A DNA stretch of 64,000 nt, from positions 1 through 64,000 of the forward strand of contig MEDY01000075.1 in the NCBI GenBank assembly GCA_001724265.1. Direction: 5' to 3'. Of the stretch, positions 1-57,545 are shown piece by piece (the first letter of the stretch is position 1; every line of letters starts with the position of its first letter). Made by a program: the position numbers and the translations under genes. The notes under the pieces are model-generated. The model saw nothing but the letters and a program-made list of their open reading frames with translations. It was not told where the DNA came from and made no database searches. The DNA is from Rhizaria sp. SCN 62-66. Taxonomy: Eukaryota.

Positions 1-32
1 CCCCCCCACCGCTTCCCCCCGCTCTCGCCCCC

Positions 33-4771: not shown

Positions 4772-7700
4772 TTACTCGCTGTTGCGCGGAAAACTGACTG
4801 CAGCCATTAACGCTGCGACGTCGGCATCTGGACTGCACAGTGGCCGGCCAAAATGCAGCAAGAAGTTGTAGACATACGCATACGGGAGCGAGTCAAGACT
4901 GCCTTCGTTGACACTCGCCCAAGCGTTGCTCACGTCACTCGCATGCACATTCACACCCACTCGCGCATTCACATTTACGCTCACACTCGCAGTGTTAGCC
5001 GCGCTAGCGAGCGCAGCAGCAGAGTCGGCGGCAGTGCCATGAATATGAGTAATATGCGTCTTCTTGTCGCCGTTCTAGGTCGTGCTTGTGCCGTTGCTGC
5101 TACGAGCACTGAAATCGCTGCTGTTGTGGAGCGTTGTGTGATTGCTGATATTGAGCGAAGCACGCGTCTGTGCCAGCACGGCCTGGATCGAGCCCGCCAC
5201 AACATCGTCATAATACGGGTCCGCATACAGCGAGGACGCGCCCAGCGACAGGACATCATCAGCCGCCGGTCCCAGCGCCTGTGCCCACAGCCGCAACGCA
5301 GACTCCGGCAGCGCCCAGTGACCGAGGGAGGATGGGTGGCGCGCGGCGAGCTGCGGCTCGGGGTCAGGAAGCCACGTGTTATGACTTACATTCCCATTCG
5401 CGCTTGCGCTGGCGTTGTTCACGCTGCTGCAGCTAATGCTGTTGCTGCTGTTGCTGACGTTGTTGCTGCGAGGGATCGTGAGGAGGTTGAGGTTGATATG
5501 TTCGCGGCTGTGGCGGGACGCTAAGGCCGACCACGCTGCTGCTGCAGCTGCTGCTGAATGGGCCGCGATCACAGGCACCGAATTTGCAACGTTGTTACGC
5601 ATCATCGCAGAGTCAGAGTTGCAATTCACGTCAGTGTCATCAGTTGCACTGGCAGCACGAGAGTCGGCGCGGCTTACATTCCCCGCAGTACTTAGACGCG
5701 CGGCCTCAGCAGCCCAGAGCTTGCTCCGGCGATTACGCACAGCGCGTCCCCTGCGCAACACGCCCTCGGCCCACCGCACGTCGGCACTTACATGCGAAGC
5801 ACTTACATCCGAGACACTTACATTCGAGGCACTTGAACCCGAAGCACTAACCTCGTAAGTGCTTGCATTCGCATCTGAGGCGTCCGAGCTAGTGTTACGC
5901 GTGGAGGCGCTCGTGTAGGTGATATTATTGTTGGTATTGGAGTAGTACTGAGACGGCACAGGGTGTAACGAGGGGTCAGTCGACCACAGAGTCGCATGCC
6001 ACTGTGGCAACGGCACGCCGTCACCAGTCTCCATCTCCACTGCATCTGCTGTTGCTGCTGCTGTTGCTGTTGCCGCTGTTGCTGTTGCTGTTGTTGCTTG
6101 CTTAAGAACACGAGCCCTCGCCTGTGCATGTGCTTTGGCTTTGGCTTTCTCGCCAATCTTGGTCTTGACTTGACGCAACACAGTGGCAAGCAAGCGCAGT
6201 GCAGGGGAGACACTCGTTGCAGAGTACACCAGAGAGCCCGGTACCGTGGAAGTTAAGCCGCTAAAAGTGGAGCCGTCAGCGCTCAAACGAGGCGGTGCAA
6301 AGAGATCAGTGGAGTAGTAGTACAACACTAGACGCGTATACTCTTGCAAAACCCTACACAAAGCGTCAGAAAACAAAACAACTCGAAACAATACGTGAGA
6401 TCCCATAGGAAGGAAAAGAGTACCGCAAATAATTGCTATGTGAACGATTAGAGACGATAGAGAGTTAGACGTACGAAAAGAGAGAGACAATGGGCTTTGC
6501 AGGCGCTAAGATGACCCCAGGCGCAGACAGTGCCGCTGTCGTCACCGCCACCAGCTGCTGCTGCTGCTGCAACTCCTGCTGCTCCTCCAGGTCAGAGTCA
6601 CGCGTACTGGTACCGTGTACCGCATGAGCACCACGTGTACCCGGTGTGATCACCGTCGCGCCACGGTGTCGCAGCGTGAGCGCTAGCCGGGGGTCGAGCA
6701 GGAGCCCACGGCCTAGCACGACGGCCTCAACAGCACCCGTAGCCTCAGCAGCAACGGCAGCGGGACGAACATCAACAGCTGCAGCAGTAGTGCCCTGTGC
6801 GGCAGGGACAGAGCCGTCACAGTGCGCGTTTGAGACGGGGGAGCTGCTCTGAGCTGCTGAGACTGCCGCGGCAACCTGCGACGCTGCGACAAAGCCGCCG
6901 TTGAGCCGCAGCGCAGGCACAATGACAGCCACTGGCGCCTTAGACGCACACCCGTGTGAGTCAGCCGTCGGTGTTGCTGCCAAAGAGGGTTCCGTGTCTG
7001 TGCGCGCGAGTGCGAGTGAAGGCCAAAGCATGGGGGAGATACAGCCTTGGCCAGTGCTCGCAATGACGTCCTCCAAAGCACGGGCGTGCGCAAACGCTGT
7101 GTCAACGCCGTCGGCGGTCGCGGAGGCGGCTAAGTGGGCGTACTCAACGCTGCCGGGCGCGGCGGCGCGTGTGTCTGCAGCGTGCACAGTCACTGAATCA
7201 AAGTTAAGCCGCGGGAGCAGTGCGGCGGCGGCGGCGGCGCGCGCTGCGTGTGACGCGCCCGGTAAGCGGAGCTTGAGTGAGATGGGGATGCGCAAGTGGG
7301 AGCGTAAGGCAGCGGCGGAAGCGTTGAGCTGTGAAACGCAGGCCTCAGCCTCTGGAGTGAGAGTATACTGCGCAGCTGCAGTCCGTACGTGCAGGGGCTG
7401 CACTGCGGCTAGGTCAGAGACAGCGCCAGCGCTAGAGCGCGCGAGAGAGCTAGAATCAGAGATTTTGCTTGAGACGGCGTTCGCGAACGAATACTCTGGA
7501 CCTTTACGATGCTGCTGCGGAGCTTGCTGTTGATCTGGCGCGCTCAAACTAGCTCCGGAAAGCGCACCACTAGAGTTAAACGGGGTTGCATGGGCTGTTA
7601 AGAGTACCGGACTGGGTAGCGCCAATCCAGGAAGGTCGATCGTGATCTGAATCTCAGCCGGCAGCGGCGCCCGTAGACGCCACAGCGCCGCGAGCCTCCG

Positions 7701-7931
7701 CGCCTCCACCACCGTCGCGGGAGGCGTAATCTGCACAATAGTCGGCGCGGCGGCGGGGTCCGAGGTGGCCTTGTGCCAGGCAACAAGGTCGTCGCGGAGC
7801 AGAGCGGCGGTGTTGACGCGTTCGGATGTGGTGAGGTCGGCGCCGAGGGTGAACCAGAGAGCGCGGGCGGCGCGGTCACTCACGCCCTCGAAGGGCGCAG
7901 ATATCAGCCGGATACAGCTGTTTCGCTGCAT
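4772..7931 (-). CDS. Degenerate tRNA-dihydrouridine synthase (Dus)-like TIM-barrel protein; exons 7931-6475 and 6353-4772, with an in-frame TAG at 5075-5077
   Basis: Dus-like motifs in order: LISAPFEGVSD..R....GADLTTSERV, IVQI, IPISLKLRL, DSVTVHA, AVVLGRGLLLDP. A GTACG...TGTAG intron (6474-6354) keeps the frame. The frame stays open 100 codons past the TAG to TAA at 4772-4774. Confidence 0.65.
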
Positions 7932-8361
7932 AAGTTACTGTTTTCCAAGGTAACGCACGAAAAAAGCGCGGTACTGGAGCAAGAATGCTATTGACGGAAA
8001 ATTCACAGAGGTTGGGCCATCTGCAGAGTTGCTCTCTTTGAGGTCGGTCGCGGTCGGCTTGGCTATTTTTAGGAACAGCTGGCTGAGGCGAAGCGAGTTG
8101 CATTTGTGGCAGCGGCGTCAGCGAACTAGTTGGGTTGGGGAGAATGAGATACTTCGCACGAATGGCCCATGGTGTTGTTTACTCTGAATGCAGATGGAGC
8201 ATTTTTGCAGTAATGCATATTTTCTCACTCTTAGTTCCCTTCATTGTGTTTATTTTGTAGGAAACCGGCCGCTTCTTTGCTCCCCCCTCTCGTCCCTCGT
8301 CTCCCTTTCCCTTCGTGCCCTGTTTCAGCGTTCTTCCCCGGCGCCTCACCGCACGTAACGC

Positions 8362-11300
8362 ATGTCGACCGAGAGCGATGACGGGTGGCAGCTTGTGAAC
8401 GCGAAGAAAAAGGTCGCGCCCGCCGCCCCTTCTGGGCAGTCCTCCGGCCACGGGATCGATGCCAACAAAGGCAGCAACGCCAACGCGTCCAACAACAATA
8501 ACAACAACAAGAAGCAGCAGGGTGGCCCCTCGCGCACCGGCACTGCGAACAACCGTGACATTGCGCGCATGTCCTCGCCCGGCGCGGCCTCGGTCAAGAG
8601 CACCTCTTCCAAGGCCGGCGGCGGCGGCGGCAACCAGAACAACAAGCAGGGCAATGGGAAGAGCGGTGGCAAGAGTGCCTACAAGTTCAACAACGGTGGC
8701 ACGGCCGCTCCCAACCAGTGGCGTGACGCTGATAAGGGTATGTTTCACACTCTCTCGCACCGCAACACTCTTCTTTCATGAACGTATATCCGAGTAATCT
8801 CTGCTTTGCGGCTCGTTTCATCTCGATCACATGAGACTCATTTTCCTCCTCTCATTCTCATCTCATTCCTTTATATCTCTCCACTTTCTCGCCATCTCGT
8901 GCTCTCGTACAGCTGGCAACAAGAACAAGAACAACCAGAACAAGCCCAAGGCCCCCAAGCCCGCCGCGGCCGCCTCTGCCCCCAACAAGCCCTCCGCTGC
9001 CGCCTCCGCAGACTCTGCCGCCGCCGCCTCCTCCACCGCCGCCGCCGCCCCTGCTACTGCGGCTGCTGCCGAGGCTGAGGACAACGACGACAACGACGAC
9101 GGCGAGGATGACGACCATGGCAGCAGCGACTACGAGGACGACTCAGAGTTTTCTGATGACGCCAACGACTACTCCGACGACGACGACAACGACGACAACG
9201 CCGAGACGGCCACTCAGGCCAGCACCGCCAACACGCACGCCTCCGCCACCGCCGCCGCGGCCGCCGCCGCCGCCTCTGCCGCCGCCGCTGCCGCCGCCGC
9301 CGCCGCTATCAACGTCGCCGTCAAGCCTCAGAAGCCTACTATCCCCGCCATCCTCGCATCCGACAGCACAGCAACCAGCGCGAATGCGAGTGCACGGCCT
9401 GAGGATGCGCCGTTGCGCGCGGTGACCGTGCCCGTCGGCATCTACCTCCACCCAGGCCACCAGCTCAAGTCGAAGCTCATCGCGGAAGGTCTCAGTCAGC
9501 CCCCGTCCCAGACGACCAAGACGCTCTCCGCTGCCGCGATCGAGTCCGCTGTCGCTGCCGGTGTGTTGAAGCGTACGGCGACGACGGGCGCGCTGGTCAA
9601 GGGCAACGGCATCCCTCTCAAGCACCACCACCCGAGCGGCGCCGCGTCCGCCGGCAACCTTACCGCCTCCGCCGCTGCCGCTGCTGGGGGTGCCGGTGGA
9701 GCCACGGCCGGCACGCCCGGCGTAGCCGACGGCGCGACCGCGACGGGCGACGTGGTGACTGTGATCGCGCCCTCCGCGGCGCCGAGCCGGACTCACACCG
9801 GCGGCGGCGGCGTCCCGCACAAGAAGGGCACGCCCGGTGTGTTCAAGAACCGCGACCGGCCGCTTGACATCGACTGGCGGCGGGGCGATACGCCTGTCAT
9901 CGAGAAGGGCAACAAAGCCAACAACAACGCGAACAAGCAGGGCGGGGGCAAGAGCGAGAACAACAAGAACGCTAACAACAACAACAACAACAACAACAAC
10001 AATAATAGTAAGAAGGGTGGAGCGAAGTCGGCCGCCTCGAGCGCGGCTCCGTCCCGCACGCAGACTGCCAACAACGCTGCTGGCGCGATCACACTCGCGT
10101 CTGCTGCTCCCTCCGCCTCCGCCTCCGCCTCCGCTGCGAGCAACAACAACAGCAACAACAAACATGCGAGCCCGTCGAAGCAGCCTGAGCAGTCCAACAC
10201 CGAGACCGCCTCAGGCTCTGGCGCTGGCGCTGGCTCTGCCAATGCTGACGTGACAGTGTTGAGCTTCTCGCCCTCTGTCCCCGCCACGGGCGCAGTGCCG
10301 GGCGCGGCCGACGTCGTCGTCGAGGAAACCGCCTCCGTCGCCGCCTCTGTCGCCGCCTCCGTCACCGCCTCTGTGGCCGCGTCTGTGACGGCGACAGAGG
10401 CGGCGTCTGGCGGCAACCAGAGCCGCAGTGTCGCATCCGCGTCGCCGTCCCCGTCGCCCGCCGCCACTGCCACCGCCGCCGCCGCCGCCGCTCCTGCCGC
10501 CGCTGCTGCTGCCGCTGACTCGATTGCGACTGTGACTGAGACTCAGGGTGGTGATTTAAACGCTGCGGCGGTCTGTGCCAAGGCTGAGTCACACTCTGGC
10601 AACACCGCTACCAACTCTCACAACAACAACAACACCGACAATGCTCACTCTGCGATGACTGCCTCTGCGTCGTCTGTTTCTTCCAACGCTACCTCTGCGA
10701 ACACTGCTGCTCCTGCCGCTGTCTCGGCCTCTGTTTCTGCCACTGCTGGCGCCGAGAAGGCTGCTGCCTCTGCTGCTGCTGTTTGCAAGAGCGACAAGAA
10801 CAACAAGAAGACGGAGACTGCGCCTGAGAGCGCCGCTGCGAGCGCTAACGGTGGTGAGACTCCATGTGAGAGTGCGAGTGGTAGCGCCGGCCACGTGACT
10901 GCCCAGATCGCCAACAACAGCAAGCCTGTGATCAACAACAACAGCAGCAGCAACGCTCAGCAGCAGCAGCAGCAGAAGCATAAGAATGCGACAACTGCAT
11001 CTGCGTCGAGTGAGAGTGCGTCCGCGGTCGTCGGCGACGCCAGCGACAGCGACGGCGACGAGCCCGCCGCCTCCGCCGCCGCCGCTAGCGCCAAGCCCGC
11101 TGCCGCCAACAACAACAGCAAGGCTAAGGGGGCCAACGCTGCTGCTGCTGCTGCTGCTGCGGCCAACGCCAAGAAGGCTGACGACACCTCGAGGAAGCCC
11201 TCGGCGACCGCGAACGACAAGAACGGCAAAAAAGCTGGCTCTGCTGGCGGCGCTGCCACCGCTGGCGCAGGCGGTGCGACAGCGACCGTGGCTGCAGCGG

Positions 11301-11401
11301 CAGCGGATCCTTTCTCCGGGGATAAGAGCAACTTGTACTTACAGGTCGCAGTTGGCGTGTGTGTGCTTGCACTCACGCTGCGCATTCTTGGCCTCATCTA
11401 A
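8362..11401 (+). CDS. Low-complexity Ala/Asn/Ser-rich protein with a C-terminal transmembrane helix (tail-anchored); exons 8362-8737 and 8913-11401
   Basis: A GTATG...TACAG phase-1 intron joins the two ORFs. Acidic tract present. C-terminus is LYLQVAVGVCVLALTLRILGLI-TAA. No family recognised. Confidence 0.75.
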
Positions 11402-11946
11402 GTACTTCTCGTCTAAGTACGACCAGTCTAAGTATGACAAGTCATACTAGTGCGAGTAGCGCTAAGTAATTCGTTGCTAGTCTCTAAGCTTACAAACAAA
11501 GTCTAAGTAGCTCCTGTTGAGTTGTGTGAACTGAACAATGTTTCAAAGCGTACGGATTGATCTCGTCGCTGTCGTGATGTGCGGATTTGTTTGGGTGTGT
11601 ATAATAGTCGTACACGCCGTTCGTAACTGCAATAGTGCGTTTTTTGTTCCTTTACTTTTCTTTTTCTTTGCTTTCTCTCTACTCTCTATCACTAGCGACT
11701 GCGGTAAACTCCGTTCTTACGACAACTAACTAACTGTAAGTCTGTGTAATTATCCCGCGTATCACTGTCGTTAGTTTGAATAACAATATCAACAACAACT
11801 ACAACAATAATCTCGTGTAACAGTCTTCCAATACGTAGTGTACATAGTGTTATTGAACATGAGCAAGAACAAGAACACAGTCTTGTGTCTATATTCGTTG
11901 CACTAGTTATATCCACATTTGACCTTGTACCCCTCGTAAAGCTATA

Positions 11947-11947
<1 letters not shown>

Positions 11948-11989
<42 letters not shown>

Positions 11990-12007
11990 CGATGATGATG
12001 ACGATAA
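11948..12007. repeat. (GAT/ATC)n trinucleotide microsatellite, intergenic
   Basis: About 20 near-perfect TGA/GAT units in AT-rich DNA between two convergent genes. Confidence 0.9.
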
Positions 12008-12976
12008 TACATGTAAACAAACGTTCACATACAGCAACATACCGTATGACTTCAATCTGTGCGTATTTTGTCGTCCGGCACAATACAGTTTACGAGTATA
12101 TCAAGTGCTAAGAATAGTGAAAATAGTGTTGGTCAACAAATATCATGAATTTAATTGTAGCTTCTTGTGAATGAAATTTATTGATCGACACCGTTCATTT
12201 AGCGGAGGTATTGTCATTAAAAATAGTACACAACAGCATGTTACGCGAGGAGCTTGCGCAATGAAATCGAACAATATCAATACGTACGATTAAATCAATA
12301 TATCAATATAGGAGCACGATTAATACGCCAGGACAAATACATTTCATACTTATGATGCCATGCATCTCGATAAGTTGAGAATAATCTGAAAACATGTATC
12401 TTGAAAGTTAGATTTACAATATGCACGCGTGTGAACGTAACCTTGCTGAGCTCAGACTTAACGAACTTCAAAGCATAGGGATACTCGCAACCACTGAAAA
12501 CATCACAGCAGTTGTCGCAAACACACCAATAACAGCATCGGTGATGATATAGAAAACGAAAACAGTGACAGTAACAATTAGAAACTCGAATATCACAAAG
12601 CAAAGATCTAGAGAGTGTTATTATAAAGAAGAAAACACACACGAATTGAAAATAGAAAAGAACATCTACAATTGAACAGATACGCAACTAAATTATTGAA
12701 TCCAAAAATACTAGTATAAAGCTTAACAAGCAAAAATAGCAGGACAAAACATTGCACTCTAGATCCGACAGCACAAAGTCAGCCACAAACATCCGCACAC
12801 TCACACATGTACATATCACAGCCTCTGACACGCACGCGTTCCGCACGCGTACTTCGTGAGTCGTACATTCCCGAAGAGCACTTCATCAGAACTCACAAGA
12901 CTAGAGAGAACAATTCAAGAACGCCCAGCTTCCAGAACGTCCGTACATTGTGTACGTACATTTATTGTACTGTACA

Positions 12977-13753
12977 TTAGAGCTCATCATGCGCAGCCCC
13001 ATGAGCCTTTGCAGAGGACTTCTTGCCATTATTATTCACATTACCGCTCTTTTTGCCACCACCGTTATGGGCATTCTTATGCGCCTCCGCCTCTTCCGCG
13101 AAATCATGCGGCAAAAGCCCCCCAACCGGGGGTGCATTGCGCTGCACTTTGCCGCCCCCTACGCGCGGCTTGACTTCCTGAAAGAGCCCGTGAGCGGCGT
13201 GCGACCCCATGACCGGCGACGTCCCCCCATTGGCAGCGGGTGAGAGCGGCGGCTGGTCGACAGTGAGCCACGGGAGCTCTCCGCCCCAGCAGAACGTGAC
13301 GGCGACGACCATGCCGAGCAGCGCCGTCAACAGCAGCCCCCACACGCAGGCGAGCCAAGGCACCCAGGCCTGTGCGCGCGCGCTGGCGTCAACGGCGGCG
13401 GCGCGGCGGGCGCGGGCGAAGTCGGCCGAGTGGCCGCGGGCGATCGCGCGGTTGCGGGCGCGCTGGGCGGCGATAGTGGCGGCGTCGAGCCCTAAGGCAG
13501 CGTCCGATTCTGACACCTTGATAGGCCTCGTGTTTAGCCCGCGACGGGAGACTGCGGAGGGGGTGGATAAGGACGCGTTGGGGCTCGAAGTGGTTGCGGC
13601 ATCGGCAGCGGGGGCGGCGGGTGATGTGGACGAAGGCTGCGTCGGTTGCGTCTGCTTAGGCTCCTGAGGCGTGGGCTTTGGAGATTGCTGCTGCTGCTTG
13701 GGTTTGGGGCTTGAGGGCTTGAGCTTGGGGGATGCTGCTGCGGCTGTGGACAT
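12977..13753 (-). CDS. Single-pass membrane protein with a C-terminal HDEL ER-retrieval signal
   Basis: ATG at 13753 (MSTAAAASPK). Hydrophobic segment WLACVWGLLLTALLGMVVAVTFCW. Ends AAHDEL-TAA. Confidence 0.75.
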   Translation of the reverse strand: MSTAAAASPKLKPSSPKPKQQQQSPKPTPQEPKQTQPTQPSSTSPAAPAADAATTSSPNASLSTPSAVSRRGLNTRPIKVSESDAALGLDAATIAAQRARNRAIARGHSADFARARRAAAVDASARAQAWVPWLACVWGLLLTALLGMVVAVTFCWGGELPWLTVDQPPLSPAANGGTSPVMGSHAAHGLFQEVKPRVGGGKVQRNAPPVGGLLPHDFAEEAEAHKNAHNGGGKKSGNVNNNGKKSSAKAHGAAHDEL

Positions 13754-14164
13754 AGCAGCGGGGAGTTGCAGAACGAGTGTGCAGGGACACGCGCGGGCCG
13801 AAGCAGACGAAGCGAGAGAACGCGGGTTTGGAGTTACTGACGGGGCAGTTGGGGCAGCGAGGGCGAGGCACTGCAAATGGAGCAGGGTCGAAATGCATTG
13901 GGTAGTGTGCGATGAGGTCTCCGATAAAGCGATATAAAATAAAAGAAATAGTATCTATTTCGCAATTTACAAATTAATCCTTTTTAAGATGCCTCCAGAA
14001 CGACACGAACACGGCTAACAACATGTTTTGCTTATCCCTCTCTCTCCACTTGCCTCCGGTTGTGCTCTGCACGCAGTGAGAAACCCCACAGTCACCTGCA
14101 CGCTCTCTACGCGAACCTCTCGCACCCACGCTTTGTTGCAGTAGATAGTGCTTTGCGGCGACCC

Positions 14165-17100
14165 ATGTATCGTGCGTTCCGCGGCCTCACACGGCCTCGT
14201 CTCGCACTTCTGCGCGCTGTGCCCTATCTCGCAACTCCTCTCGCAACTGCAGCTGCAACGCCTCTCTCAGCTTCCAGCAGTCTAGCCTCCTCTGCCGCTG
14301 TGAAGCCCTCGCTTGCCGCCTCGCATGCGTGCGCCCTTACAGAGCCTGTCTCCGCGCGCGGCTTTTCTTCCCGCGCCCCTCTCAAGCAGCAGAAGCGTCC
14401 CCCGGCCAAAGTTCCCCCTAAGCCCTCCGCTTCCACTCCGCAGCCCCCGCCGCACGCAGCCGCCGCGCGCGCCGCTGCTCCGTCCGCGAACGCCGCCGAG
14501 GCTGTGTGGAGTCCGCCCTTTCTGCTCGCAGCGTCACCGTTGCCCGCTCGTGCGCCGCCCACCTCGCATTCTTTCCCCACTCTGGCGCCCGCGATGCTCC
14601 CCGGTACGCACCACAAAACAAGGATATATCTTATATAATCACGTAATAGGCAACACATGTAGTGTTGTGATGCATGTGTATTTTGATATTTGTATGATTG
14701 TCATTCGTATCGCTGACTTGGTATCTCATATTTTCTTTGCTGCTCTGCGTCTGTGGACTCAACATCTTGTACTGTCATAGGTTTGCTTGGGGTACCTGGC
14801 TTGCACTCACCTGCCGATTTCCGCCCTCTCGTCGCCGGCGCCGTGTCCCGCGCTTAGGCTCTTCGCTCGCACATTACCCGCTGTACCGAAAAAACCCCAC
14901 CTCGTGTCGTTGTGCAGCTGATTGACGACATCAGTAACGCATTTTGCGCTGTCGTCGATGTCGCAGAGTTCGTCCGCCACGTAAGTCTAACATCACGCAT
15001 ATATCTCCACAAAGCAAATGCTTTATAATCACAATTTTCGCTAATAACGCCAATTTCTATATAACCTGCAAATTTTTTTTAACGCATCAATCACTCATCG
15101 AAATCCCCAAATCGTTACTTCTCTGTTGTTTGTTGTTTTTCTTGACCTAAAACAGCACCATCATGACTCGCGCTGGCGCAACGCCGCGAACGAAGCCTGG
15201 TATGTCCTCCAAGACAAACTCACCGAGTTCTCCCTCGACTCATCGATCATCACCGCTCTCGATACACTGTACGCCCGCCCCGCCGCGCGCGCTCTGTTGA
15301 GCGAGGAGCAACGTCGGTTCATCATCTCTATGCTCGCGACTCTGCCCAAGGACGTTGACGACGCTCTCCGCGCTCGCCAAGCCGCTTTATCGCGCGAGAC
15401 CACGGTGCTTGAGGGCGCGACCTCGGCCGCGATGGCCGCTCCCACGGTCGCTGAGCAGGCGCTCACACTGCCGGTGCCAGGGCTGATGGCGCACGACCAC
15501 CCGCAACTCGCGCGGGCCCGGGCAGTCAAGCTCGCTGACTCCGCGCTCCCGGCGCTCGAAGTCAGCATGCGGCCGAGCGTCGTAACGCGGATGGCGCCAG
15601 GAATGCCCAACCGCTCCGCTCGCCGCAGCCTAACCGCGCTCGCTCAGGGCACTAACGGCTACGACGCCGCGCCGCTGCTGTCAACACTCGTCGCGGCGCG
15701 GCACGAGGTTGCTGCGTTTGCCGGCGCCGCGTCGTTTGCGGAGTCCTCCGCGCGCGCCCACGTCACGCGGTCAACCGACCTCACTGCGTCGGTGCTGCTC
15801 TCCGTGCGGCAGGCTCTCACGCCGCTAGTCGAGGAGGAAGTCGCTGAGCTTGTGAACCTCAACGCGTTCATCCAGCAAATCACCGTGCGCGAGTCGGCGC
15901 TCGCCGCGCAAGCCAAGATCGACACGTGCGTCGCCCCCGCCGGGTTAAGTCAAGCCGCCTCGCTTTCGGCCGCCAAGACAGCGGTTGCGACCGACCCCTG
16001 CGGCCTAGTCGCACCTGTCTGCGATGCCGCGACGGCGCCGCGGGCGCGGCAGGTTCTCGCGGTTGCGTGGGGAGGCGAGCCCGGTCAGTGGGCGCCGCTG
16101 CCTGTCCGCGTTAAAGAGCCGTTGCGGGTCCGGTCGCGCGCTGCCGCGCTGTCGCTCGCGGCCAGTGTCAACACCGCAGACCTCGACCACGCGTCCGCTC
16201 TCGCATTCAACAGCAGCAACGGTGACGATGGCTCGGCGAACTCGCGTTTGCCAGACCGCTCTGGGGGCGGGGCTGGCGTGGCTGCAGTCTCCGCTGCCGC
16301 CGCGGGCGCGATCAAAGGGAAACTAGGCTCGATGCTCAAGTCTGCCGCCGCATCCGTGCTGTCAAACTCTGCCTCCGCCGTCGCGAATTCAGAGGCAGCT
16401 GCCGAGGCCGAGGCGGCCTCTCTGACGGCCGCGGCGGCGCGTGTTCTGCGTGTCTCTGACGCTGAGGCCGCCAAGGGCGGTGACCCACGCAGGTGGCTAC
16501 TGCAGGGCCGCGCGCGCGCTCGGTCCATCCTCCGCTCCCCGGCTGCGACGACGGTTCTGCCCCTCACAGCGCACGGCGAGGATGAAAGTCAAGCCGCGTC
16601 CGCCGGCGCCGGTCGTTGCGCCCCACTGGCGCTGCATGATGCTGACTGCGCCCGCCAGGCCGCGGCAGGGCTTATTGACGCACACAGGGCCTCGCTGTCG
16701 ACGAGCGGGCATGCTCCCGGTCACTCTGCAAGCGGTGTGAGCACTGGACTGAGGCCTGGTGAAATGGCCGACGACGACACCCGCCTCGCGCGGCATTTAT
16801 CGCTCGCGAACGTCGTCAACGGGCTCGATCTCTGGGCGTATACCGTGTTTGGCGTGCGGCTGATTCCGGTGCCTCTGCGCGCGGACGAAGCGTGGGTGCC
16901 CTCGCCCCTTGCCAGCGGCGCCAACGACACCCCCGGCAACTCGATCGTGAAGCTCCTCGTGGTCGACCGCAGTGCGCACCGCGCTCCGCATGCAACGTCG
17001 TTTGCGTTCGAAGCCGGTGCACATGCGGCGGTGATTGGTGACGGTGAGCTGATGGGTGTTGTGTATCTGGATCTGTTTCACCGCAATCATAAGCAGCCGG

Positions 17101-18989
17101 GGGCGGCGACGTTTACTGTGCAGTGTGGCCGTGTTGTGAGTCCGTTTGATGCGGACAGTGTGACACTGGAGGCTGTTGAGGCTGCCAACAATACGGCCAC
17201 CGTTGCAGAGTCACTTGCTCTCTCTGCCAACTCACACTCTAACAACAGCAACAACAACAGCAGCCGTGATGATGATGCGAGCATGAATGACGTCTCGAGC
17301 AGTGACGCTGCTCACGCTAAGGCGAATAGCTTCAACAGTGCACGTATCTCTGATGTCGCTGAATTGTACCCGCACTTGGCTGGCACTGGCCTCGGCTCCG
17401 GTGACAACGCGTCTCTGTCGCGCTCGCAGTCTCAGTCGAACAAGAGTGCGATTAGCAATGCGCGGTACCAGATGCCGGTCGCCGTCGTGTCTATGACTTG
17501 CCGCCACGTGGCCGCCCCACCCATGCGGACCGCCCCCACAGGTTCCACCCCATTACTCGTGCATCCCGACAACTTGGAGACGATTTTCCACGAAATGGGT
17601 CACGCCATGCACGCGATGCTCTCCCGCACTCAGTACCAGCACCTCGCGGGGCTCCGCGGCGAGCTCGATTTCGTCGAAACGCCCTCGACGCTGGCCGAGT
17701 TTTTCGCGCATGACCCGCGCGTTGTCTCCCGCTACGCGCGCGCGCTCGAGACGAACCAGCCGTTGGCGGAGCGTGACCCGCTGCTGACACGCCGCGCGCG
17801 TAAGCAGAATCTGTTCGCCGGGATCGACACGCTGAACGACGTGTATAACGGGCTGCTGGATCAGAGGATGTTTGGCGCGCCGGCCGCGTTTGATCCTCAT
17901 CGCGTTTTCCCGCAGTTTGAGCACTTGGACGGCGGCGGTGAAACCAGCGTCAACACAAGCGCAAACGCGAACTCGAACTCTGTTTCCAGCGCTAGTTCTG
18001 AAGTGAGCACGGCGTTGACGAATGAGGAAGCGGTGACTGTGGCCGAGTCGCACGGCTACTGGCTGGCTCCGGCACAGGAAAGCATGATGCCCACCATCGC
18101 GCGTCTTTTCCCCGTTGCCAACGACGCCCAATCGCGGCACGCGCACGCACACCCGGCTCAGATCTACCTCATTGCACAGCAACTGCGCACGTTCGTCCAC
18201 CCGCTGGCGCTGACCCCCGGCTCAGTCAACTACGCGACCGTCGGCCACTTCGTCTCGTACGGCGGCACGTTCTACACGTATCTCTTCTGTCGGATCTTCG
18301 CGTGGGCGCTCTGGCATAAGTTGTTCCGTGAGTCTCCTCTGGGGCCCGGGGCGAGGGCGGGCGGCGCGAGGCTGAGGCGGATGCTGACGGCGGGCGGGGC
18401 GCGCAGTCCGATGGATCTCCTCGTCGAAATCCTCGACACCCACCCCACCGCTAGCAACAACAACGGCAACAAAAGCACGAGTAGCTCATCCAGTGCGAGT
18501 GTGAGCGGCGATAAGTCTCTGCTCAGCGCTGCGTTGCTACCTGTAACTGTGGCGCCTCGTGACCCCGTCACTGGCCAGGTGTGCGCTCCAGCCACACTGA
18601 CTCTGCCGTGGGCTGAGGGCGCGGCGGCGCAGCGCGCTGAGATGGTGGAACCGCTTGAAGGTATGTGGCAAACCTTACCACATTATCTTCGAAACAACAT
18701 TCGCAAATTTACCTCGTATGACATGTAACGAAACTATTTGATAATGAAACGAATTATATATAGTATATGTGTATGTAAACTCAATGTAGTTTATTTTGTT
18801 TTTAATGTCATACGCTAACATCAATGCCTCTATTTGTTCACTTTTGTGCTATCTTTAGAGCGTCACGTGCGTGCACTCAACCAAGCGTTGCAGCTTTATG
18901 TGGCTGAAGTCACCGCTGCAAGCAGGGATGCACTGGAGGAGCTGCGGCAGGATATGGCGCTTGCTACGGCGCATCACAGGCGGATGTAA
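14165..18989 (+). CDS. MIPEP: Mitochondrial intermediate peptidase (M3 family, Oct1/MIPEP-like); exons 14165-14603, 14781-14980, 15156-18660, 18859-18989; in-frame TAG at 14855-14857
   Basis: Arg/Ala/Ser-rich presequence MYRAFRGLTRPRL. Exon 2 encodes the MIP N-terminal block GLLGVPGLHSPADF...IDDISNAFCAVVDVAEFVRH. Zinc motif FHEMGHAMH, plus DFVETPSTLAE and HFVSYGGTFYTY. All three introns are GT-AG and phase-compatible. Confidence 0.9.
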
Positions 18990-19352
18990 GTGCTTCGGCT
19001 AAGTACCCCCGCTCAGTAGCTGCGCGCTAAGTAGCGACGCTCAAATGCAGTGCTTTCTGCTTACACTTTACTATTGTAAACTGTGAACTTATATTTATTT
19101 AATAAATCGTGAAGATACAAACTACAAGGCTGGCTTGATAGCCAATTCAATAAACAAAGAGCCCTTTTTAATCAATTTAGAGGTGATATTATTGTTTTGT
19201 ACATGTATTGCTAAGCCGTTGGCCAGTACTTACGTGGCCTGTCCGCTACATTGCATGCTTTTTATACTGCAACTGCGTCAATTATGTTATGAACTAAAGT
19301 AACGATATTAGTATTGTGATTCTTCTCGACAGCAACGCGTACGCATGCCCAC

Positions 19353-22300
19353 TCACTGCGGCTGCGCCTGTTGCTGCTGGTTGTGCTGCGAAGGCAGTGT
19401 CGTCGACAGGTTAAAACCGCCACCGACAATCTTGGGCTGAGATGCAAAGAACGTACGCTGCTGTTGGAACAGAGGGTCCGCCTTGAGAGTCTGGGTCGCA
19501 GTCTTGCTTTTTTGCTTCGTCAGCAGCTCCTGCTTGCGCTGCTCGAAGTACTTTTTCTTCACATCCTGTGTTTGTAAGAAGAAAACAAAACAATGCAAAA
19601 AGTGACAAAAAATTAACGAGACACAACACAACGAGAGAAACGTGAGTAATTGACTAAAAAAAGGAATGATACCATAGAATACTAGAACATCAAATAGAGA
19701 ACGTTATTTGGATGGATTACAAGTAAGAATGAAGCGTACCTGGTGCTCACGCGAGATCTTATCGACCTCATACTTGTACTCATTGGCCTGCGCCTGGAAG
19801 AGGTTGAGCTCGGCCGCCATCGCCCGCATCTGGCGCGTCTTATCCTTCAGCGCGGTCTGATACACCGTGAGCTGCTCCGCGAGCTCGGGGCCCGGGTGGC
19901 GGGCAACAACTTTCTTAAGAGCGAGGTAAGCACGCTCTTTCTCCTCGAGCTGCATATCACGACCGACGACTTCCTCCGTCTTGGAGATGAGACGCTTCTG
20001 CAGAGTGTGGATCTTCTGGATCAGCTCGAACTTCTTCGGGTCGGAGCCTTCAAGGTTGCGCCAGCGGTGCACGTTCATCGGGTTCTCAAGCTCCTCAGAG
20101 AGGGCCTTGACCTTAGTGCGCTCATGCAGAAGCTCGCGCTGGATGTGGTAAACCTATGGTGTGGCAAATTTAGACCATAGATAACAAAGATAAAGCCGAG
20201 TGAGTAAAAAATCATTATCGAACATACAAGTGTCCATAAATCAATCAATACATTAAATTAAACATACAAAACACAAATCTTAGTATATATCGATACGAAA
20301 CGTGAACGTACCTCGTTCTTGAGCGCATCGATGTTAGTGACCTCCTGCGAGCGAATCTGGAGTTCCTGTTTCAGGTTGTTGATCGCAATCTTGAGCGCAC
20401 GCAAGTCCTGCAAACGCTCACGGTACTGCACTTCACCCTTGTTGAGCGTCGACTGCTGAATACGGACCTTCTCGTACAGCAGAGCGAGCTCATCATTGCG
20501 GCGAATGAGCTGTGTACCGAGGATATCACGCTCTTGCATCAGCTCGTCATACGCGCGCTCCTGCTGGTGGTGCGCCACCTCGGCCTCGATGAGCTGCCGA
20601 CGCAGAGCCTTGATCTCGCTGTCCTGCGACGAAAGCACCTGGTCCGCAGTCGCGAGAACTTCCTTGCGTTTGTTGAGCTTCCGCTTGGCGACTTTCATCT
20701 CCGCTTGGAGACGCTTGCACGCGAAATGCTCGTTGATGAGTGCGTTGTCCTTGTTCTGGATCTCTTCCTTAAGCTGCTCGATCTGGTGCGCCATCATCGC
20801 GAACTTGTGCTTCATTTCACTGATGTCGTCCTTTTGCAGCGCCTGCTGCTTTGAGCACTTGTTGCGATCAGACCGCACTTGCTCATACAGACTCTGCTGC
20901 AGCTTGAGCTTATTACGCTCTTCGGAGATTTGCGCGTTGAGCTCGGCGATTTCCACCTCCTTGAGCTTCGCCTGCTCACTGGCTTCGGAGAATTTCGCGT
21001 GCCACAGTGCGGCAGTCATGGCAGCCTTCTCACGCTGCTTCTCAAGCATGTAGTTACGCTTGCGCAGCTGCTGCTCCTCGACCTTATGCGACAGAATGTC
21101 CTCCTCGAGCGTCTTCTTAACCAGCTCAGCGTCCTCGACAAGCCGGAACTGATCACTGTTCTTCTGGTTCGCGGCATGTACACTTGCTGCCAGCCGCTTG
21201 ACCTGGGTCTGAAGCTCAGAGATGATACGCTCGTCCACTTCGGCGTCCTTGCGCTGGGCCTCGAACGACTGGAGAACAGTCTTCATCTGGCCTTTAAGCC
21301 AGTCCTTATATTTCTCGCTTTGGGCACGTTTCTCGCCCATCTGCTCGCGGTCACGCTCGGCCTTTTGCCGCGCCAGAGTCTCCTCACGAAGCTTCTCACG
21401 CACCTTGCGAAGTTCCTTGGCCTTCTCGAGGCTCTCGTCAATCGCAGCCTGCTTCTCGGTCAACGCCTTGCTCTCAAGCTCGGCGTGGGTCTGCCGGTCC
21501 TTGTCGAGCTGCGTGTTGCGACGGCGCAGGTCCTCCGCGAGTTGGTGAAACCGCTCACGCGCAGCCTCGGCTTCGCGCACCTTGCCTTCGAGCTCACGGA
21601 TTCGGTCGTCGCGCTCAGTCAACGCGGCCTGCTTCGCGGTGAGGTCCTTCACGGTGTCTTCGTGCGCGCGCTGCACGTTGACCATCTGCTGCTGGAACTG
21701 GGCCGCCGTGGAGCGCTCGCGGGCGGCGTGCTCTTGGAGCTGCTTCTTCTCCTCCGCGAGCTTGTCCGCGTCCTTCTGCATCGTCGTGATCACCTGCTCG
21801 AGTTGCGCGTTCTTGGATGAAAGCTCGCGCATGAGAGCGTTGGTGGCGTCGATCGTCTTGACGTGCATCTCAACCTCTTTTGTCAGGTCTTCCTTGATCT
21901 TGAGGAGTTCGTTGACGGCGTTCTCCTGCCCGATGCTGAGGCCGGCACCTTGGTCAACGAGCAGCGAAAGTGACTGGATCTCAACCTTGAGGCGTTGGAT
22001 GGTATCGCGCGCACGGCGCTCCTTCTCCTGAGCGCCGTCAATCATCCGCCAGGCCTTGTCAAGCTCTTTCTTGAGGAGAGTGATGCTGTTCTGGTCTTGC
22101 ACGGAGAGGCGGAGCGCGGTTTGGATCTTGGCGGCGTTGGCGACGATTTCTTGGTTAAGCTCGCGGCACTTCTTCACAAGACGTTTCTCGTTCTCGTAGG
22201 AGCGCTTGAGGGTGGCGTGGAGCTTCTCGTACTCAACACGAAACTTCTCCAGGTTCTTCCCGCCGACAATCTCGTTGAGAACGTCTTTGAAGTCGCGCTC

Positions 22301-33859: not shown

Positions 33860-33894
<35 letters not shown>

Positions 33895-37188: not shown

Positions 37189-37365
37189 GCCGAGCTTTCC
37201 TCTGTACTATCTACAAAACGCGGATCAAGAAAATATTAAAAGGGGATATAATATATTAGTGCTTTTAAACATCTTTCATTTTGTTTTCATTTGAAATAGA
37301 CGGATTTTTATAGTGGTAGACATAGTCAAAGTTAGCCTCAACTGGCAACCGACTAGAACAAGCTC

Positions 37366-39177: not shown

Positions 39178-42361
<3,184 letters not shown>

Positions 42362-45785: not shown

Positions 45786-47864
45786 TTACTTGGAGTGGAA
45801 GACAGCGTTGGCGATGCTGGGGGACACGATCACGCCACCCGCCACAAGCATCTTCTTCCCATCAAACGTCAGCTCCTTGTTGTCGTTGGTCGCGAGAAGC
45901 CCGTAGACGTTCTTGATGACCTTCTCGTTGGCGCGCGCAATAACGCCCTCAACGGGGCGCTGGCCCTCGATGTACAGCCGGTCGCCGACCTTGGCGCCCG
46001 CCGGGGGGCGGAGGAGGTCAGACGCGGTGCCGTCGGCGTTGGAGCCGCCGAGAAGCATGGCGAAGGTCTTGTTGCCGAGGAAAGCGGCGGGCTTGAGGTT
46101 GGCCAGGAGGACGAATGTCTTGCCCTCGAGCTCCTCGACGGCCATCTGCTGACGGACGTTCGTCACAACCTACAGTCGAATGATCGAGTGTAAGCAAGCA
46201 CACACACACACAAAAAAAAAAAAGAGTTAAGTGAGAGCGCAAGCGTCAGCGAAGAGAAAAGAAGAAAAGAAAAAAAACACGATTATGTGCATGCAAGAAG
46301 ACAAAGACAAAAGACATTATGAAATATCAAAATATCACTATATTGTTCTCATGAATATGATTATATCTGCGTACCTGAACAGCGCCCTCGGCGTGGCCGA
46401 TATCAGCCTCGAGAATGTAGAGCTTCTCACTGCCCTCAAGCGGGCGAACGTTCTGGAGCTTACCGACACGGAAGTCGCACTTGTAGCTCTCACCGACAGG
46501 CTCAGCACCCGCCGCGCCGGCGGCGGAGGCCTCAGGCTCAGCAGCAGCGGCGGCCTCGGTGTCGACGGTGCCGTCAATGTCGATCTCAGGCTCCTCGGCG
46601 GCGTGCGACTCGTCGTGGCCCTTGGGGTAGGCGGCGGCGACGATGGCCTGCATCTCAGCCGACTGGAACTCGGCGCGGATAGGGTCAAGCAGGGCGTTGA
46701 TCTCGTACGCAACGGCGTTCTTGAGGTCGAGGGGGAAAAGCGACTTGTCGGCGTAGGCGGCCTCAAGAGCGGCGTAGCTGGGGAAGTGCATGTTGCCACC
46801 GTGCTTCTCCTCGCGACGGATGGTGAGGGACCCGTCCTTGGAGAGGGGGAAGAGGACGCGCTGCGTGAAGGCGAGGAGTCCGTTACCCTCAACGACGCCG
46901 GGGTCCGCGAAAGCCTTGCGAATCTTGGTCTCGACAGTCTCGCGCGAGTCGAGCAGGTCGATCTTGGAGTTGGGGTCGGAGGCGGACATCTTGTTGCCCT
47001 TGCCGCCGGTCAGGGAGGGAACCATGGGGTTCATGAAGTGAAGCCGCTTCGAGTAGCCGATCTTGGGGAGGAAAGTCTCGGCGTAGGTGAAGATCTTGCG
47101 CTGGTCAACACCGCCGAACTGGGCATCAACCTTGAGGTACTCCTCATCGAGCGCCTGGAGCAGTGGGTAGAGCATGCCCGAGAGCATGGGCGACGCGACC
47201 TGCTTGACGACCTCAGCGCCGGCCTTCTTGGAGTTGCGCTCAGAGGTCATGGCGGTGAGCTTGTAGACGTCGAGGGAAAACTCGCGGGAGAGCTGGTAGT
47301 CGGTACCGCGGACAAACTTGAGCTTGTCGAGGGGAACGCCGATCGACTTGAGCATCGACTTGATCACGCACTCGTAGTACGTCGTGCGAGCCTAGAGATG
47401 GAACAAAAAAGTAGCAACAAAAAAGCAAAAAGTAGAGGAGTGAGGTGTTGCTTGCAGTATACATGCAAGATAGATGCTTGATAGATAATTGTTTAACAAA
47501 TAGGAGAAAGTAGATAATTTACATAAAATGTGAAAGATATATGATGCAGGAATGATGTTTCGTTCGCGAGATATCGACATACCTGGAGGAGGTTCCAGGG
47601 CGCCTTCTGGTTGTCGAGGTAGGCGTGGAGGTCAGCGAAGAGGATGGTAACCTCGCAGCCAGCGCGCAGGAAATCGGCGACCTTGGCCATGGGGACAAAG
47701 TACGCGATGTGGGGCGCACCAGTTGTCGCAGTGCCCCAGTAGAGCTTGAGGTCGCGCTCGGCGAGGATGGTCTTGAGGGACTCAACGGCCTTCTCGGCAC
47801 CCATGACTTCGTCGAGGCCGCGGGTGATCAGCTCAACCTTCTCGGGAACGGAAAGGCTACTCAT
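45786..47864 (-). CDS. YARS: Cytosolic tyrosyl-tRNA synthetase with a C-terminal EMAP II-like tRNA-binding OB domain; exons 47864-47583, 47391-46375, 46169-45786
   Basis: [14 protein letters not shown] (HIGH-like), [10 protein letters not shown] and KMSAS. C-domain DFRVGK...KLY...LANLKPA...[10 protein letters not shown]. Confidence 0.95.
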
Positions 47865-48640
47865 CGCTAAAGAAGCTTTCTGCTGTGATAGGGAGTTCGT
47901 GGAAAGATATCAGGAAGAAAATGATGAGGTTGTGAGGAAGTTTTAGTGGCTGATTTGTGGTGCCGTCGTCGACCGCGAAGCGGGGATGGAGCAAAGACAA
48001 GGCCCGAGTAATCCACAAAACACGCAACAGAAAGAGAAAACACTCGTTTTGAAGAATCTACAGCGCATATAGTCCAAATGAAGGTGTTTCATGTGCTAGA
48101 GTTGTGTTATTGCGCGATGCGGACACGGCAGAACAAGCAAGCAAGAAGGTTGAGGTGCGCTTCGAGGACCGCGTAGTTCGAGCGCTGACAAGCTGCATAA
48201 AAGCACAACTACACGGAATAAAAAGAAAAGCAAGTAGAATACAAACGTTCAAGTCCTAGCGCACTACGCAAAACCGTCGAGAGCCGCACTGCACACTCCA
48301 CGTAAGATGGAAACACAGACGACTACGGCAGCTTGCGAACCGTTCGTGGTGGTCGTCGTCCGACTTTTTACGAACCACCGAAGTCGCTGCCACACAGAAC
48401 AGCGAGAGAGCCAAACGGTCACGATCACAATCTCATCTGCCCAGCCATCACACCTCCGTTGTTAGAAATGCCACGCTACCGAACAAATATGTTCGCATCT
48501 TTTCTGCTTATATTTTTAATAAGAGTTTCAAATTTACTTATTTACTCCCCCTGCACTCTTCCCCGCAGCCCCGCTCTTCCCGGCACAACCTGCCCTACCC
48601 CGCCTCCCTAGTCACTCCCAGCCCTGTGCACTCTTCCCGC

Positions 48641-56078: not shown

Positions 56079-57545
56079 TTAGATGACCGTGGCTTGATTT
56101 CCCGCGGCCGGCACAGGCCTGAGCGCGCCATAGTAGTGGTTCGCATCCCTGACCTCCGTCACACCGCCGGCCTGCGCCCGCAGCCTCTCTGTCTCAACCG
56201 CGTCTTCCGCGATCAACTTGCGCAGCGCGGCGTCCTGAGCGTCGCGGGTGGCTTGCGGGATCGACGCGAGGCGCAGGATTTTACCGTCCATCATGTGTAC
56301 CACGCGGTGCGCGTAGTACTGGAGATCGTTGTCATGTGTTACCATGATGCAAGTAATGCCCTCGCGGCGGGACAGCTCAACCAGCAGACTGAGGATGACA
56401 CGCGAGCTCTTGGTGTCCAAATCGCCGGTCGGCTCATCAAGGAGCAGCACGTCCGGGCAGTTCGCGATGGCGCGCGCGATGGTGACGCGCTGTTGTTCGC
56501 CGCCTGACAGCTGCGACGGGAGGTGCAGCGACCGGCGCCCGATGCCGACTTGGTCGAGCAGGAACTGGGCGCGCGCGTCGATGTCGCTGCGGGACAAACG
56601 GCCGTCGAGAATCATCGGCAGAGCGACGTTTTCGAGCGCTGTCATGGTCGAAATAAGGTTAAACTGCTGGAAGACGAAGCCTAAGTGGCGCAGACGCAGC
56701 TTCGAGAACTCGTCGTCGGTGGTCGCGCTTGTGATGCGGCGCTGTGCGATGTACAGCTCACCCTTCGAGGGCCGGTCGATGGTGCCGAGGATGTTGAGCA
56801 TCGAGGTCTTGCCGCCGCCCGACTTGCCGAGGATGACAATAAACTCGCCGCGGGCGATGGAGAGGTTCACGCCGCGCAGGGCGGGGACGCCGTCGAGGCC
56901 GAGGAGGTAGGTTTTGTGTACGTTGACGGCCCGGATGACGACGTCTTCGGGGTTAGGGATGATGATCCCGTCACTGTTACGCGTGAAATCACCCCCACCC
57001 TGTTGCTGCTGCTATTGTTGGCGGCCCTGGCTCTGGGCCTGTTGGGAGGAGATGTGGGGCAGCTGGAGAGCGGGGTTGAGGCGGGAATCGTTGTTGAGCA
57101 GAGCTGAGCCGACGCCAGAGCACGAGCCGATGTTGCTGTTGTTGTTATTGTTGTTGTTCAGAGCGTAGGCGGAGAAGGAGGAGGAGACGTTACCGTTGTT
57201 GTTGCGCGGGCTGTTGTCGTCCTCCTCGAGAAGCTCCGACTCCTCCAGGGTGTTGGCGGCGTTGTTATTGTTGGTCTCGTCAGGGTGGACCTGGGATGGA
57301 GACTTGCTGCGGCGGCGGCCACTGTTGCTGTTAGGTGCTGTTGAAGCGTCTGCGAGCAAGTCCGGCGACGGCTGGACGGAGCGGAGAGGCGCGCTGCCCG
57401 TCGTCGTGGTCACGTCAGCGCCACCAGCGTTGTTGTTGTTCGCGGCGGAGGCAGAGGGGGGGAGGTTCGAGTCCGATGAGAGGGAGGAAAGGGGGTAGAA
57501 GTCAAAACCGCCGGGCCCGGTCTGAGACGTGGGGATCTGGCTCAT
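56079..57545 (-). CDS. Stand-alone ABC ATPase (LolD/MacB/FtsE-like; resembles Dictyostelium AbcH type) with an in-frame TAG at 57012-57014
   Basis: ORFs 57012-57545 and 56079-56870 share one frame. VNVHKTYLLG..ALRGV, Walker A GKSGGGKT, LGFVFQQFNL, LSGGEQQR, LLLDEPTGDLD and MVTHD. The only in-frame ATG upstream of Walker A lies before the TAG. Confidence 0.88.

Follow-up and report, generated by a model that had tools for sequence, protein, structure and literature searches.

Nuclear genetic codes in which UAG is translated while UAA still terminates have been described from several eukaryotic lineages. UAG alone is read as glutamine (Gln) in the fornicate Iotanema spirale, in Protocruzia tuzeti and in two phyllopharyngean ciliate lineages, as leucine (Leu) in the rhizarian exLh and as serine (Ser) in Scotinosphaera (PMC5304391, PMC11687900). 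The broader change, in which both UAR codons become Gln (table 6), is known from many ciliates, hexamitin diplomonads, ulvophytes and Amoeboaphelidium protococcarum (PMC5304391, PMC11687900). Here we describe a 64-kb stretch of eukaryotic nuclear DNA (contig MEDY01000075.1, positions 1 to 64,000; hereafter the window) in which three unrelated genes each carry an in-frame TAG. Most likely, the organism translates UAG as an amino acid and terminates at UAA and UGA, because the TAGs lie inside intact conserved genes and no gene ends in TAG. That it uses a table-15-type nuclear code, with UAG specifically meaning Gln and with UAA and UGA as stops, we regard as likely.

The best-documented figures for comparison come from two of these organisms. 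Iotanema has 204 UAG codons in 126 genes, about 8% of its Gln codons; its terminators comprise 104 UAA, 15 UGA and no UAG, and Gln occupies 22 of 28 hyperconserved UAG sites. For exLh, the counts are 384 UAG in 71 genes, with 56 UAA and 15 UGA stops and Leu at 82 of 86 hyperconserved sites (PMC5304391). Going by these published data, the window resembles Iotanema in reassigning UAG alone, in a UAA-dominated and UAG-free set of stops (about 14:4) and in using sense UAG as a minority Gln codon. The TAA:TGA ratio in the window is similar to that of both published protists, 104:15 in Iotanema and 56:15 in exLh, which speaks for a UAG-reassigned code. The window differs from Iotanema in how sparsely UAG is used, which is weighed below, and also in its mitochondrial-type M3 peptidase, its GC-rich (guanine- and cytosine-rich) exons and a CFAP58 protein that falls in an environmental-only clade.

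The other described systems can be set beside the window in the same way. Ciliates with UAG-only codes (table 15 ‘Blepharisma’, Protocruzia, phyllopharyngeans) would share its code table (PMC11687900). Unlike them, the window has 56% GC, GT-AG introns of 120-210 nt and long low-complexity proteins, and no ciliate is found among the named CFAP58 matches listed. Ciliate macronuclear genomes are generally AT-rich and have very short introns. Like the window organism, exLh is uncultured, splits UAG from UAA and uses only UAA and UGA as stops (PMC5304391). Unlike exLh, in which UAG falls on conserved Leu, the window shows Leu in 0 of 25 homologues at its second TAG and has its third TAG in a polyglutamine (polyQ) run; a UAG=Leu code of the exLh type was rejected on these grounds, with three sites in all. 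The UAR=Gln codes also include UAG in their change from stop to Gln, but TAA is the main terminator in the window and no in-frame TAA occurs in 13,671 codons. A table 6 code was discarded since TAA ends 14-15 genes, some of them homology-confirmed, as was an aphelid identity (Amoeboaphelidium), where the reported UAR=Gln conflicts with the TAA terminators here.

Our literature search, which did not cover subscription journals or supplements, found no such code reported in a wastewater protist or in a eukaryotic metagenome-assembled genome outside ciliates. The code variant is already known, and the window organism is probably a further case of it. An earlier reading of this DNA, made from the sequence only, had named Iotanema (Gln) and a rhizarian (Leu) as precedents; that list was incomplete, Protocruzia and the two phyllopharyngean lineages being UAG-only=Gln as well (PMC11687900).

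Three in-frame TAG codons in unrelated genes

The sequence-only reading had placed single in-frame TAGs in three genes. All three were found at its coordinates and on its strands, followed by the codons it had named, as given in the following list of sites and genes.

5075-5077, minus strand: in-frame TAG no. 1, followed by AAC, within the variable linker encoded by the Dus-like gene; the TAA stop follows 100 codons later
4772-7934, minus strand: Dus-like gene, two exons, donor near 6474, TAA at 4772-4774
14855-14857, plus strand: in-frame TAG no. 2, followed by GCT, in exon 2 (14781-14980) of the M3 peptidase gene
14165-18728, plus strand: M3 peptidase gene, exons at about 14165-14603, 14781-14980 and 15156-18728, TAA at 18726-18728; the start is approximate
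57012-57014, minus strand: in-frame TAG no. 3, followed by CAG, in the N-terminal extension of the ABC ATPase, within the run CAA CAA TAG CAG CAG CAA CAG
56079-57545, minus strand: ABC ATPase gene, single exon, ATG at 57545, TAA at 56079-56081

The coding sequence before and after each TAG shares its frame, homologues of all three genes align to both flanks, and no frameshift or further stop interrupts any of them. Gene models were curated by hand from open reading frames (ORFs), codon-score segmentation, donor motifs, Pfam and homologues; automatic Viterbi gene models, which contained spurious long introns and antisense genes, were discarded.

At site 2, the exon structure itself fixes the reading frame. 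Exon 1 runs to 14603, where GTACGC follows the first base of a codon, and exon 2 (200 nt) starts after the AG at 14779-14780. The codon split between them is GGT; from there the frame reads LLGVPGLHSPADF...TAG...VVVQLIDDISNAFCAVVDVAEFVRH to the GTAAGT at 14981; exon 3 continues in phase from 15156. The phases at 14603/14781 and 14980/15156 are compatible only with the TAG-containing frame, and the introns are of GT..AG type with a GC content of 0.33-0.37. More than 1,200 codons follow the TAG, and the long ORF matches Pfam Peptidase_M3 (E=5.8e-48); we read the product as probably mitochondrial-intermediate-peptidase-like. A HMMER search with the 66 codons of the exon at 14783-14980 returned 26 proteins at E<=0.001. 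Of these, 25 are contiguous across the site, carry both flanking motifs and are gapless at the TAG; the 26th (P0152), a repeat protein matching in three weak stretches, was left out. In nine of nine longer homologues tested, Peptidase_M3 lies about 200-300 residues downstream, as it does in the window.

The ABC ATPase that carries site 3 (Pfam ABC_tran, E=1.3e-29) has an in-frame ATG at 57545, 177 codons upstream of the TAG. ABC_tran starts about 35 codons past the TAG (by Pfam, the domain runs from residue 224, with the TAG as residue 178), and there is no ATG between the TAG and ABC_tran/Walker A, the first one lying beyond Walker A. The 310 codons that follow the TAG are 81% identical to the orthologue P0001. 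All eight aligned orthologues have an N-terminal extension of their own, and the 435-aa protein P0122, the longer member of the closest cluster, matches the window protein from its first residues (N-terminus MS..P....G..G.DF..LSS) to its last. The TAG falls within a window-specific insertion, which table 15 reads as unbroken polyQ. A scan of metagenome contigs with the ABC domain gave no close relative; to judge by identity (39-50%) and by the pattern of the matches, most of its 80 loci appear to be bacterial ABC genes.

Site 1 lies in a gene whose 5’ ORF has a Pfam Dus match of E=3.8e-05. Its relative P0127, a single 536-aa ORF with 44% identity, matches the window protein upstream of the TAG (residues 393-460) and again downstream of it (residues 539-586), where the two share the block SLD.LP.AY.YNFLLH.GR...DAD.A.L.AA..F.R; it ends at most 3 residues from the window’s TAA at 4772-4774. 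With P0127 matching before and after the TAG, the 100 codons that follow it are part of the protein. The alignment is uninformative on the residue, since the TAG sits in a variable linker.

Introns do not explain the TAGs. GC within 75 nt of the three sites is 0.54, 0.60 and 0.61, compared with an intron mean of 0.34; local values span 0.52-0.67, against 0.30-0.44 in 16 introns. No donor motif occurs upstream of site 1 or site 3 within their exons: donor scans (GT[AG]N-type with AT-rich sequence downstream) found none upstream of site 1 within the exon and none on the minus strand from 57545 to 56079. Two donor-like matches just downstream of site 1 (4883 and 4877) fall within a conserved PYAYVY block.

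A further explanation is that the TAGs are artefacts or signs of decay, that is, errors of assembly or of sequencing, nonsense alleles present in a minority, or pseudogenes of recent origin. Random nonsense mutations in these genes would mostly produce TAG (67-69% of random single-base changes with the window’s codon usage), and the Logan contigs that we used for comparison omit rare variants. The contigs of four runs were compared over window positions 1-20000, with sites 1 and 2 inside this range and site 3 outside it. Both sites were present with 0 differences in contigs from runs X3 (study P2, 2017) and X4 (study P3, 2025), neither of which comes from the likely source study (run dated 2015): site 1 in X3 contig record 3 (4459-5178) and X4 contig record 9 (3996-6036), and site 2 in X3 contig record 7 (14348-18406) and X4 contig record 13 (13802-15364). 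In addition, the ORFs that end exactly at a TAG recur in public data. P0126 (443 aa, window 5078-6406, minus strand), the standard-code product ending at site 1, is on four public contigs, and P0288, a 177-aa ORF ending at site 3 (57015-57545, minus strand), is on seven contigs from JGI, Logan and ENA, so that up to three collections hold such ORFs. Given identical contigs from two further studies and these recurrent ORFs, assembly error is unlikely, and with long, open and conserved frames downstream of all three TAGs we consider artefact or decay as a whole highly improbable. The check for assembly errors thus came out in favour of the sequence-only reading.

We also asked how these TAGs rank among all stops in the window. 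The scan took all 102 stops with 60 stop-free codons on each side (60 TGA, 20 TAA and 22 TAG) and scored each by its lower flank. Sites 3 and 1, the two of our TAGs that were eligible, rank first and second (0.259 and 0.160), with the next stop at 0.039. With flanks of 20-40 codons, one TAA, one TAG and one TGA that are antisense shadows of Prp6 and CFAP58 are picked up as well; the 60-codon scan is free of them. Flanks of 12 codons showed no further sense-strand in-frame TAG, at a low sensitivity that also missed the known sites 2 and 3.

Several other TAGs that look in-frame are non-coding. Those at 14778-80, 26579-81, 41697-99, 42283-85, 44348-50 and 47392-94 are 3’ splice acceptors, and that at 31015-17 is intronic. 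At the 3’ splice site, TAG takes the place of CAG in many introns, often in frame with the next exon, and raw ORF lists therefore overstate the number of in-frame TAGs.

Terminators and the amino acid at UAG

The terminators of the curated genes are as follows.

4062: TAA, Dcp2-like gene
4772: TAA, Dus-like gene
11399: TAA, low-complexity tail-anchored protein
12977: TAA, unnamed gene
18726: TAA, M3 peptidase
19353-19355, minus strand: TGA, CFAP58; the last exon ends ...GGGFNL... plus a short tail, as in P0182 and P0178
23890: TAA, weak model
24629: TAA, CFAP97-like/repeat gene
29236: TAA, unnamed gene
29825-29827, minus strand: TAA, fumarate reductase-cytochrome b5; the last ORF has 238 residues, with Cyt-b5 at 158-230
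33151: TGA, unnamed gene
37613: TAA, unnamed gene
42359-42361, plus strand: TGA, lysyl-tRNA synthetase (LysRS); last exon from 42286, with a motif that we take to lie near the C-terminus of the family
44822: TGA, cyclin
45786: TAA, tyrosyl-tRNA synthetase (TyrRS)
52510: TAA, Prp6
54480: TAA, unnamed gene
56079: TAA, ABC ATPase
58342: TAA, ankyrin-DHHC gene

Over these 18-19 models from one window, TAA ends 14 genes (plus the weak model), TGA ends four, and no gene ends in TAG. Homologues or domain boundaries support five of these ends (TAA for the ABC ATPase, the Dus-like gene and the fumarate reductase-cytochrome b5; TGA for CFAP58 and LysRS); the others were placed by ORF end and coding score. 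The sequence-only reading had counted 15 TAA, 5 TGA and no TAG in 20 genes; the absence of TAG stood, and the other counts changed because we merged the ankyrin and DHHC ORFs, the CFAP97-like and repeat-protein ORFs and the exons of the fumarate reductase. TAG is taken to make up an assumed 15-30% of stops in what follows. The chance of seeing 0 of 19 would then be P=0.046-0.001 (P=0.014 at 20%). As the earlier reading had also stated, no in-frame TAA or TGA was needed: 0 of either occurs in 13,671 curated codons, a zero that is partly by construction, ORFs being delimited by those stops. The TAAs at 37613-37616 and 45786-45789 (both minus strand) are embedded in GTAAG, so that the stop overlaps a donor-like motif, and the ORF ending at 37613 could alternatively splice to the next gene (33151-37224).

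These terminators bear on the possibility that UAG is still a stop, in a standard or ambiguous code, and is read through by near-cognate tRNA-Gln(CUG), whether driven by context or leaky, with no dedicated tRNA. In that case, other genes of this genome would end in TAG. TAG is extremely rare (3 of 13,671 codons) and all three sites are at non-conserved positions, which speaks for such readthrough. In yeast, a QXQ context at a premature stop promotes the insertion of Gln (PMC13192750), and site 3, as Q-Q-TAG-Q-Q, has a context of this type; in this it is similar to yeast near-cognate readthrough, in which Gln is inserted at a Gln-flanked stop. The yeast case is partial and operates within a standard code. 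Here, neither site 1 (T-T-TAG-N-G) nor site 2 (R-A-TAG-A-L) is flanked by Gln, their contexts have nothing in common, and no gene of the window, among 18-19, ends in TAG. Moreover, 3 of about 19 genes would need readthrough to make catalytic or conserved domains, and the TAGs of sites 1 and 2 recur unchanged in runs from 2017 and 2025, the likely source run being from 2015. We judge readthrough unlikely, if the least so of the alternatives considered here.

Programmed readthrough was likewise rejected, as the three contexts differ and no complete functional protein ends at a TAG, although no search for RNA structure was made. In the M3 peptidase and the ABC ATPase, the TAG precedes the sole recognisable domain, and in the Dus-like gene it precedes the conserved C-terminal block. 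The sequence-only reading had argued that differing contexts speak against a shared readthrough signal, and TAG-AAC, TAG-GCT and TAG-CAG were indeed found.

Editing of the mRNA could in principle restore these genes under a standard code, either from A to I (giving UGG, tryptophan) or from U to C (giving CAG). Fungal A-to-I editing, known from the sexual stage of some filamentous species, prefers UAG and repairs premature stops in Fusarium. A-to-I editing of stop codons has been described in fungi (PMC13123824). Editing would leave TAG terminators in place, yet none of the 18-19 terminators is TAG; tryptophan (Trp) is found in 0 of 25 homologues at site 2 and is unlikely inside a polyQ run. 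The cilium genes of the window (CFAP58 and CFAP97) make a filamentous ascomycete unlikely, since such fungi are not known to have them. Overall, editing appears very improbable.

If UAG is a sense codon, its meaning has to be read from few positions. Sites 1 and 3 lie in linker or indel regions of their relatives. The site-2 column in the 25 homologues holds glutamate (Glu, E) 7 times, asparagine (Asn, N) 5, Gln (Q) 4, D, K and R 2 each, and T, S and A once each; L, W and Y are absent. Judging from this column, Gln fits at site 2, and Leu and Trp do not.

UAG might therefore be sense with another meaning, such as Glu, lysine (Lys), Leu, Ser, tyrosine or Trp. UAR is Glu in peritrich ciliates and Blastocrithidia. 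At site 2, E (7/25) and N (5/25) are commoner than Q (4/25), and GAG and AAG are, like CAG, one mutation from TAG. Nuclear codes with UAG=Leu and UAG=Ser exist as well (PMC11687900, PMC5304391). The evidence for Gln is that site 3 sits in an otherwise pure run of Gln codons, that the closest site-2 homologue (P0128) has Q, that L, W and Y are found in 0 of 25, and that one transition is enough to turn CAG, the most frequent Gln codon (407 occurrences), into TAG. We consider a different amino acid improbable, a little more so than readthrough. Of the earlier proposal that UAG is Gln with UAA and UGA as stops, sense UAG is thus borne out by homology on both sides of the three TAGs, and Gln, from the polyQ run and one variable column, would be a weakly supported best guess.

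Several observations weigh against reading UAG as Gln in this organism. The evidence consists of three codons in one 64-kb window. Among the 13,671 curated codons there are 407 CAG, 95 CAA and 3 TAG, so that TAG makes up 3 of 505 putative Gln codons, about 0.6%; roughly 100 would be expected if TAG were a neutral synonym of CAG (TTG/CTG=0.25), about 30 times more than observed. Iotanema, by its published counts, reaches about 8%, unlike the window with three TAGs in about 19 genes and none at a conserved Gln. No TAG coincides with a conserved Gln, so that site 2 would accommodate Glu, Asn or Lys equally well. The TAG-free terminators number 18-19, with several 3’ ends placed by ORF and coding score. 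The bias of random nonsense changes towards TAG, given above, also counts here; with p about 0.3, the fact that all three codons are TAG carries no statistical weight by itself. ARAGORN and Rfam detected no tRNA genes or other RNA families in the window, and eRF1 is not among its genes. In RNA runs X5 (a polyA metatranscriptome) and X6, depth is 0 in the bin that holds site 1 (4670-5336), and among the RNA contigs listed, none crosses site 2 or the M3 peptidase introns.

Under the favoured reading, UAG as Gln, a mechanism can be proposed. Because UAA remains the main stop, whatever decodes UAG would have to leave UAA unread. A tRNA-Gln whose anticodon is CUA, which a single mutation could derive from tRNA-Gln(CUG), would do so, and the N-domain of eRF1 may have lost or weakened its recognition of the G in UAG. 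Pánek et al. similarly take UAG-only decoding to point to a CUA anticodon and weakened UAG recognition by eRF1 (PMC5304391). The TAG share of about 0.6% of Gln codons, some 30 times under the neutral value, suggests either that the change is recent or that UAG is poorly decoded and still selected against; TAG would then survive mainly at permissive, non-conserved positions. The sequence-only reading had called the reassignment young or weakly used, and 3 of 505 putative Gln codons agrees with that.

The organism, its genomic surroundings and significance

GC in the window ranges from 48 to 64% in 4-kb windows; coding exons are GC-rich, and the GT..AG introns, about 120-210 nt long, are AT-rich (GC 0.30-0.44, mean 0.34, n=16 introns). 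Pfam identified a Dcp2-like NUDIX protein, the weak Dus-like N-terminus, the M3 peptidase, CFAP58, the ABC ATPase, a class II lysyl-tRNA synthetase, a tyrosyl-tRNA synthetase and a flavin adenine dinucleotide (FAD)-dependent fumarate reductase, along with CFAP97, PRP1_N, DHHC, ankyrin, cytochrome b5 (reductase tail) and tRNA-binding (TyrRS tail) domains. Extreme low-complexity runs (poly-N, poly-A/S) occur in most window proteins. Positions 4601-14600 are present in public runs from bioreactor, wastewater, activated-sludge and microbial-fuel-cell metagenomes, with 10 rows from 6 studies holding at least part of the stretch, and the contig is therefore that of an uncultured protist. Over positions 1-20000, compared with four runs from several studies and years, only 7 single-base differences are listed (runs X3, X4 and X6), and the population looks nearly clonal.

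The fumarate reductase (29825-31890, minus strand) is soluble, with FAD_binding_2 spread over three exons and a C-terminal cytochrome b5 domain fused to it. At 58342-62451 (minus strand), ankyrin-repeat and DHHC palmitoyltransferase ORFs share a strand with donor motifs between them, and are probably one Akr1/HIP14-like gene. At 24629-27831 (minus strand), splicing from a donor at 26744 to an acceptor TAG at 26579-81 apparently joins a CFAP97 (Hemingway) exon to a long one with (AEAKAK)n-like repeats and poly-N/poly-Q tracts. TyrRS (45786-47867, minus strand) has a C-terminal tRNA_bind domain (EMAP II-like), and the nearest ESM Atlas clusters with the same architecture are mostly labelled Chordata and Platyhelminthes; as a marker of lineage, its comparison with the ESM Atlas gave only generic eukaryotic clusters.

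Environmental CFAP58 sequences share 46-65% identity with the window protein, and named matches 39-44%, from at least five supergroups; the nearest named ones, at about 42-44%, are from Gloeochaete, Cryptomonas/Hemiselmis, Colponema, Ancoracysta and Plasmodiophora. In a quick, unfinished maximum-likelihood tree of 35 sequences, the window protein and 20 environmental sequences form a clade (SH-aLRT 98) apart from 13 named rows. This is a tree of one coiled-coil gene, with no ciliate or fornicate included, and it cannot place the lineage. The diverse environmental-only clade (P0155-P0176) may point to a sizeable group of flagellates, so far unsampled, within the JGI, ENA and Logan data. From its gene content and its distribution across metagenomes, the organism appears to be an uncultured, cilium-bearing, mitochondriate eukaryote of bioreactor, wastewater and activated-sludge systems. 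An independent origin of the reassignment is plausible on these comparisons, and we tentatively propose, as a possibility that we would not put at even chances, that the window records a UAG-to-Gln reassignment of independent origin, caught at a very early stage, in an uncultured and unplaced flagellate that is common in wastewater systems. UAG would already have disappeared from the terminators, with its sense use, at about 0.6% of Gln codons, confined to permissive sites.

The practical consequences are already visible. Standard-code gene callers have cut at least two genes at a TAG in public collections (P0126 and P0288), and the annotation of eukaryotic bins from this lineage will go wrong if table 15 is not applied. 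Nuclear codes that split UAG from UAA are rare, the papers cited here listing Iotanema, exLh, Scotinosphaera and a few ciliate lineages, and each new case tests why UAG and UAA usually change together. With sense-UAG usage more than tenfold below that published for Iotanema, the organism could show an incipient reassignment. If this is true, it would provide a natural snapshot of the stage at which a codon has been lost as a stop but has yet to spread as sense, and with it a direct test of codon-capture versus ambiguous-intermediate models.

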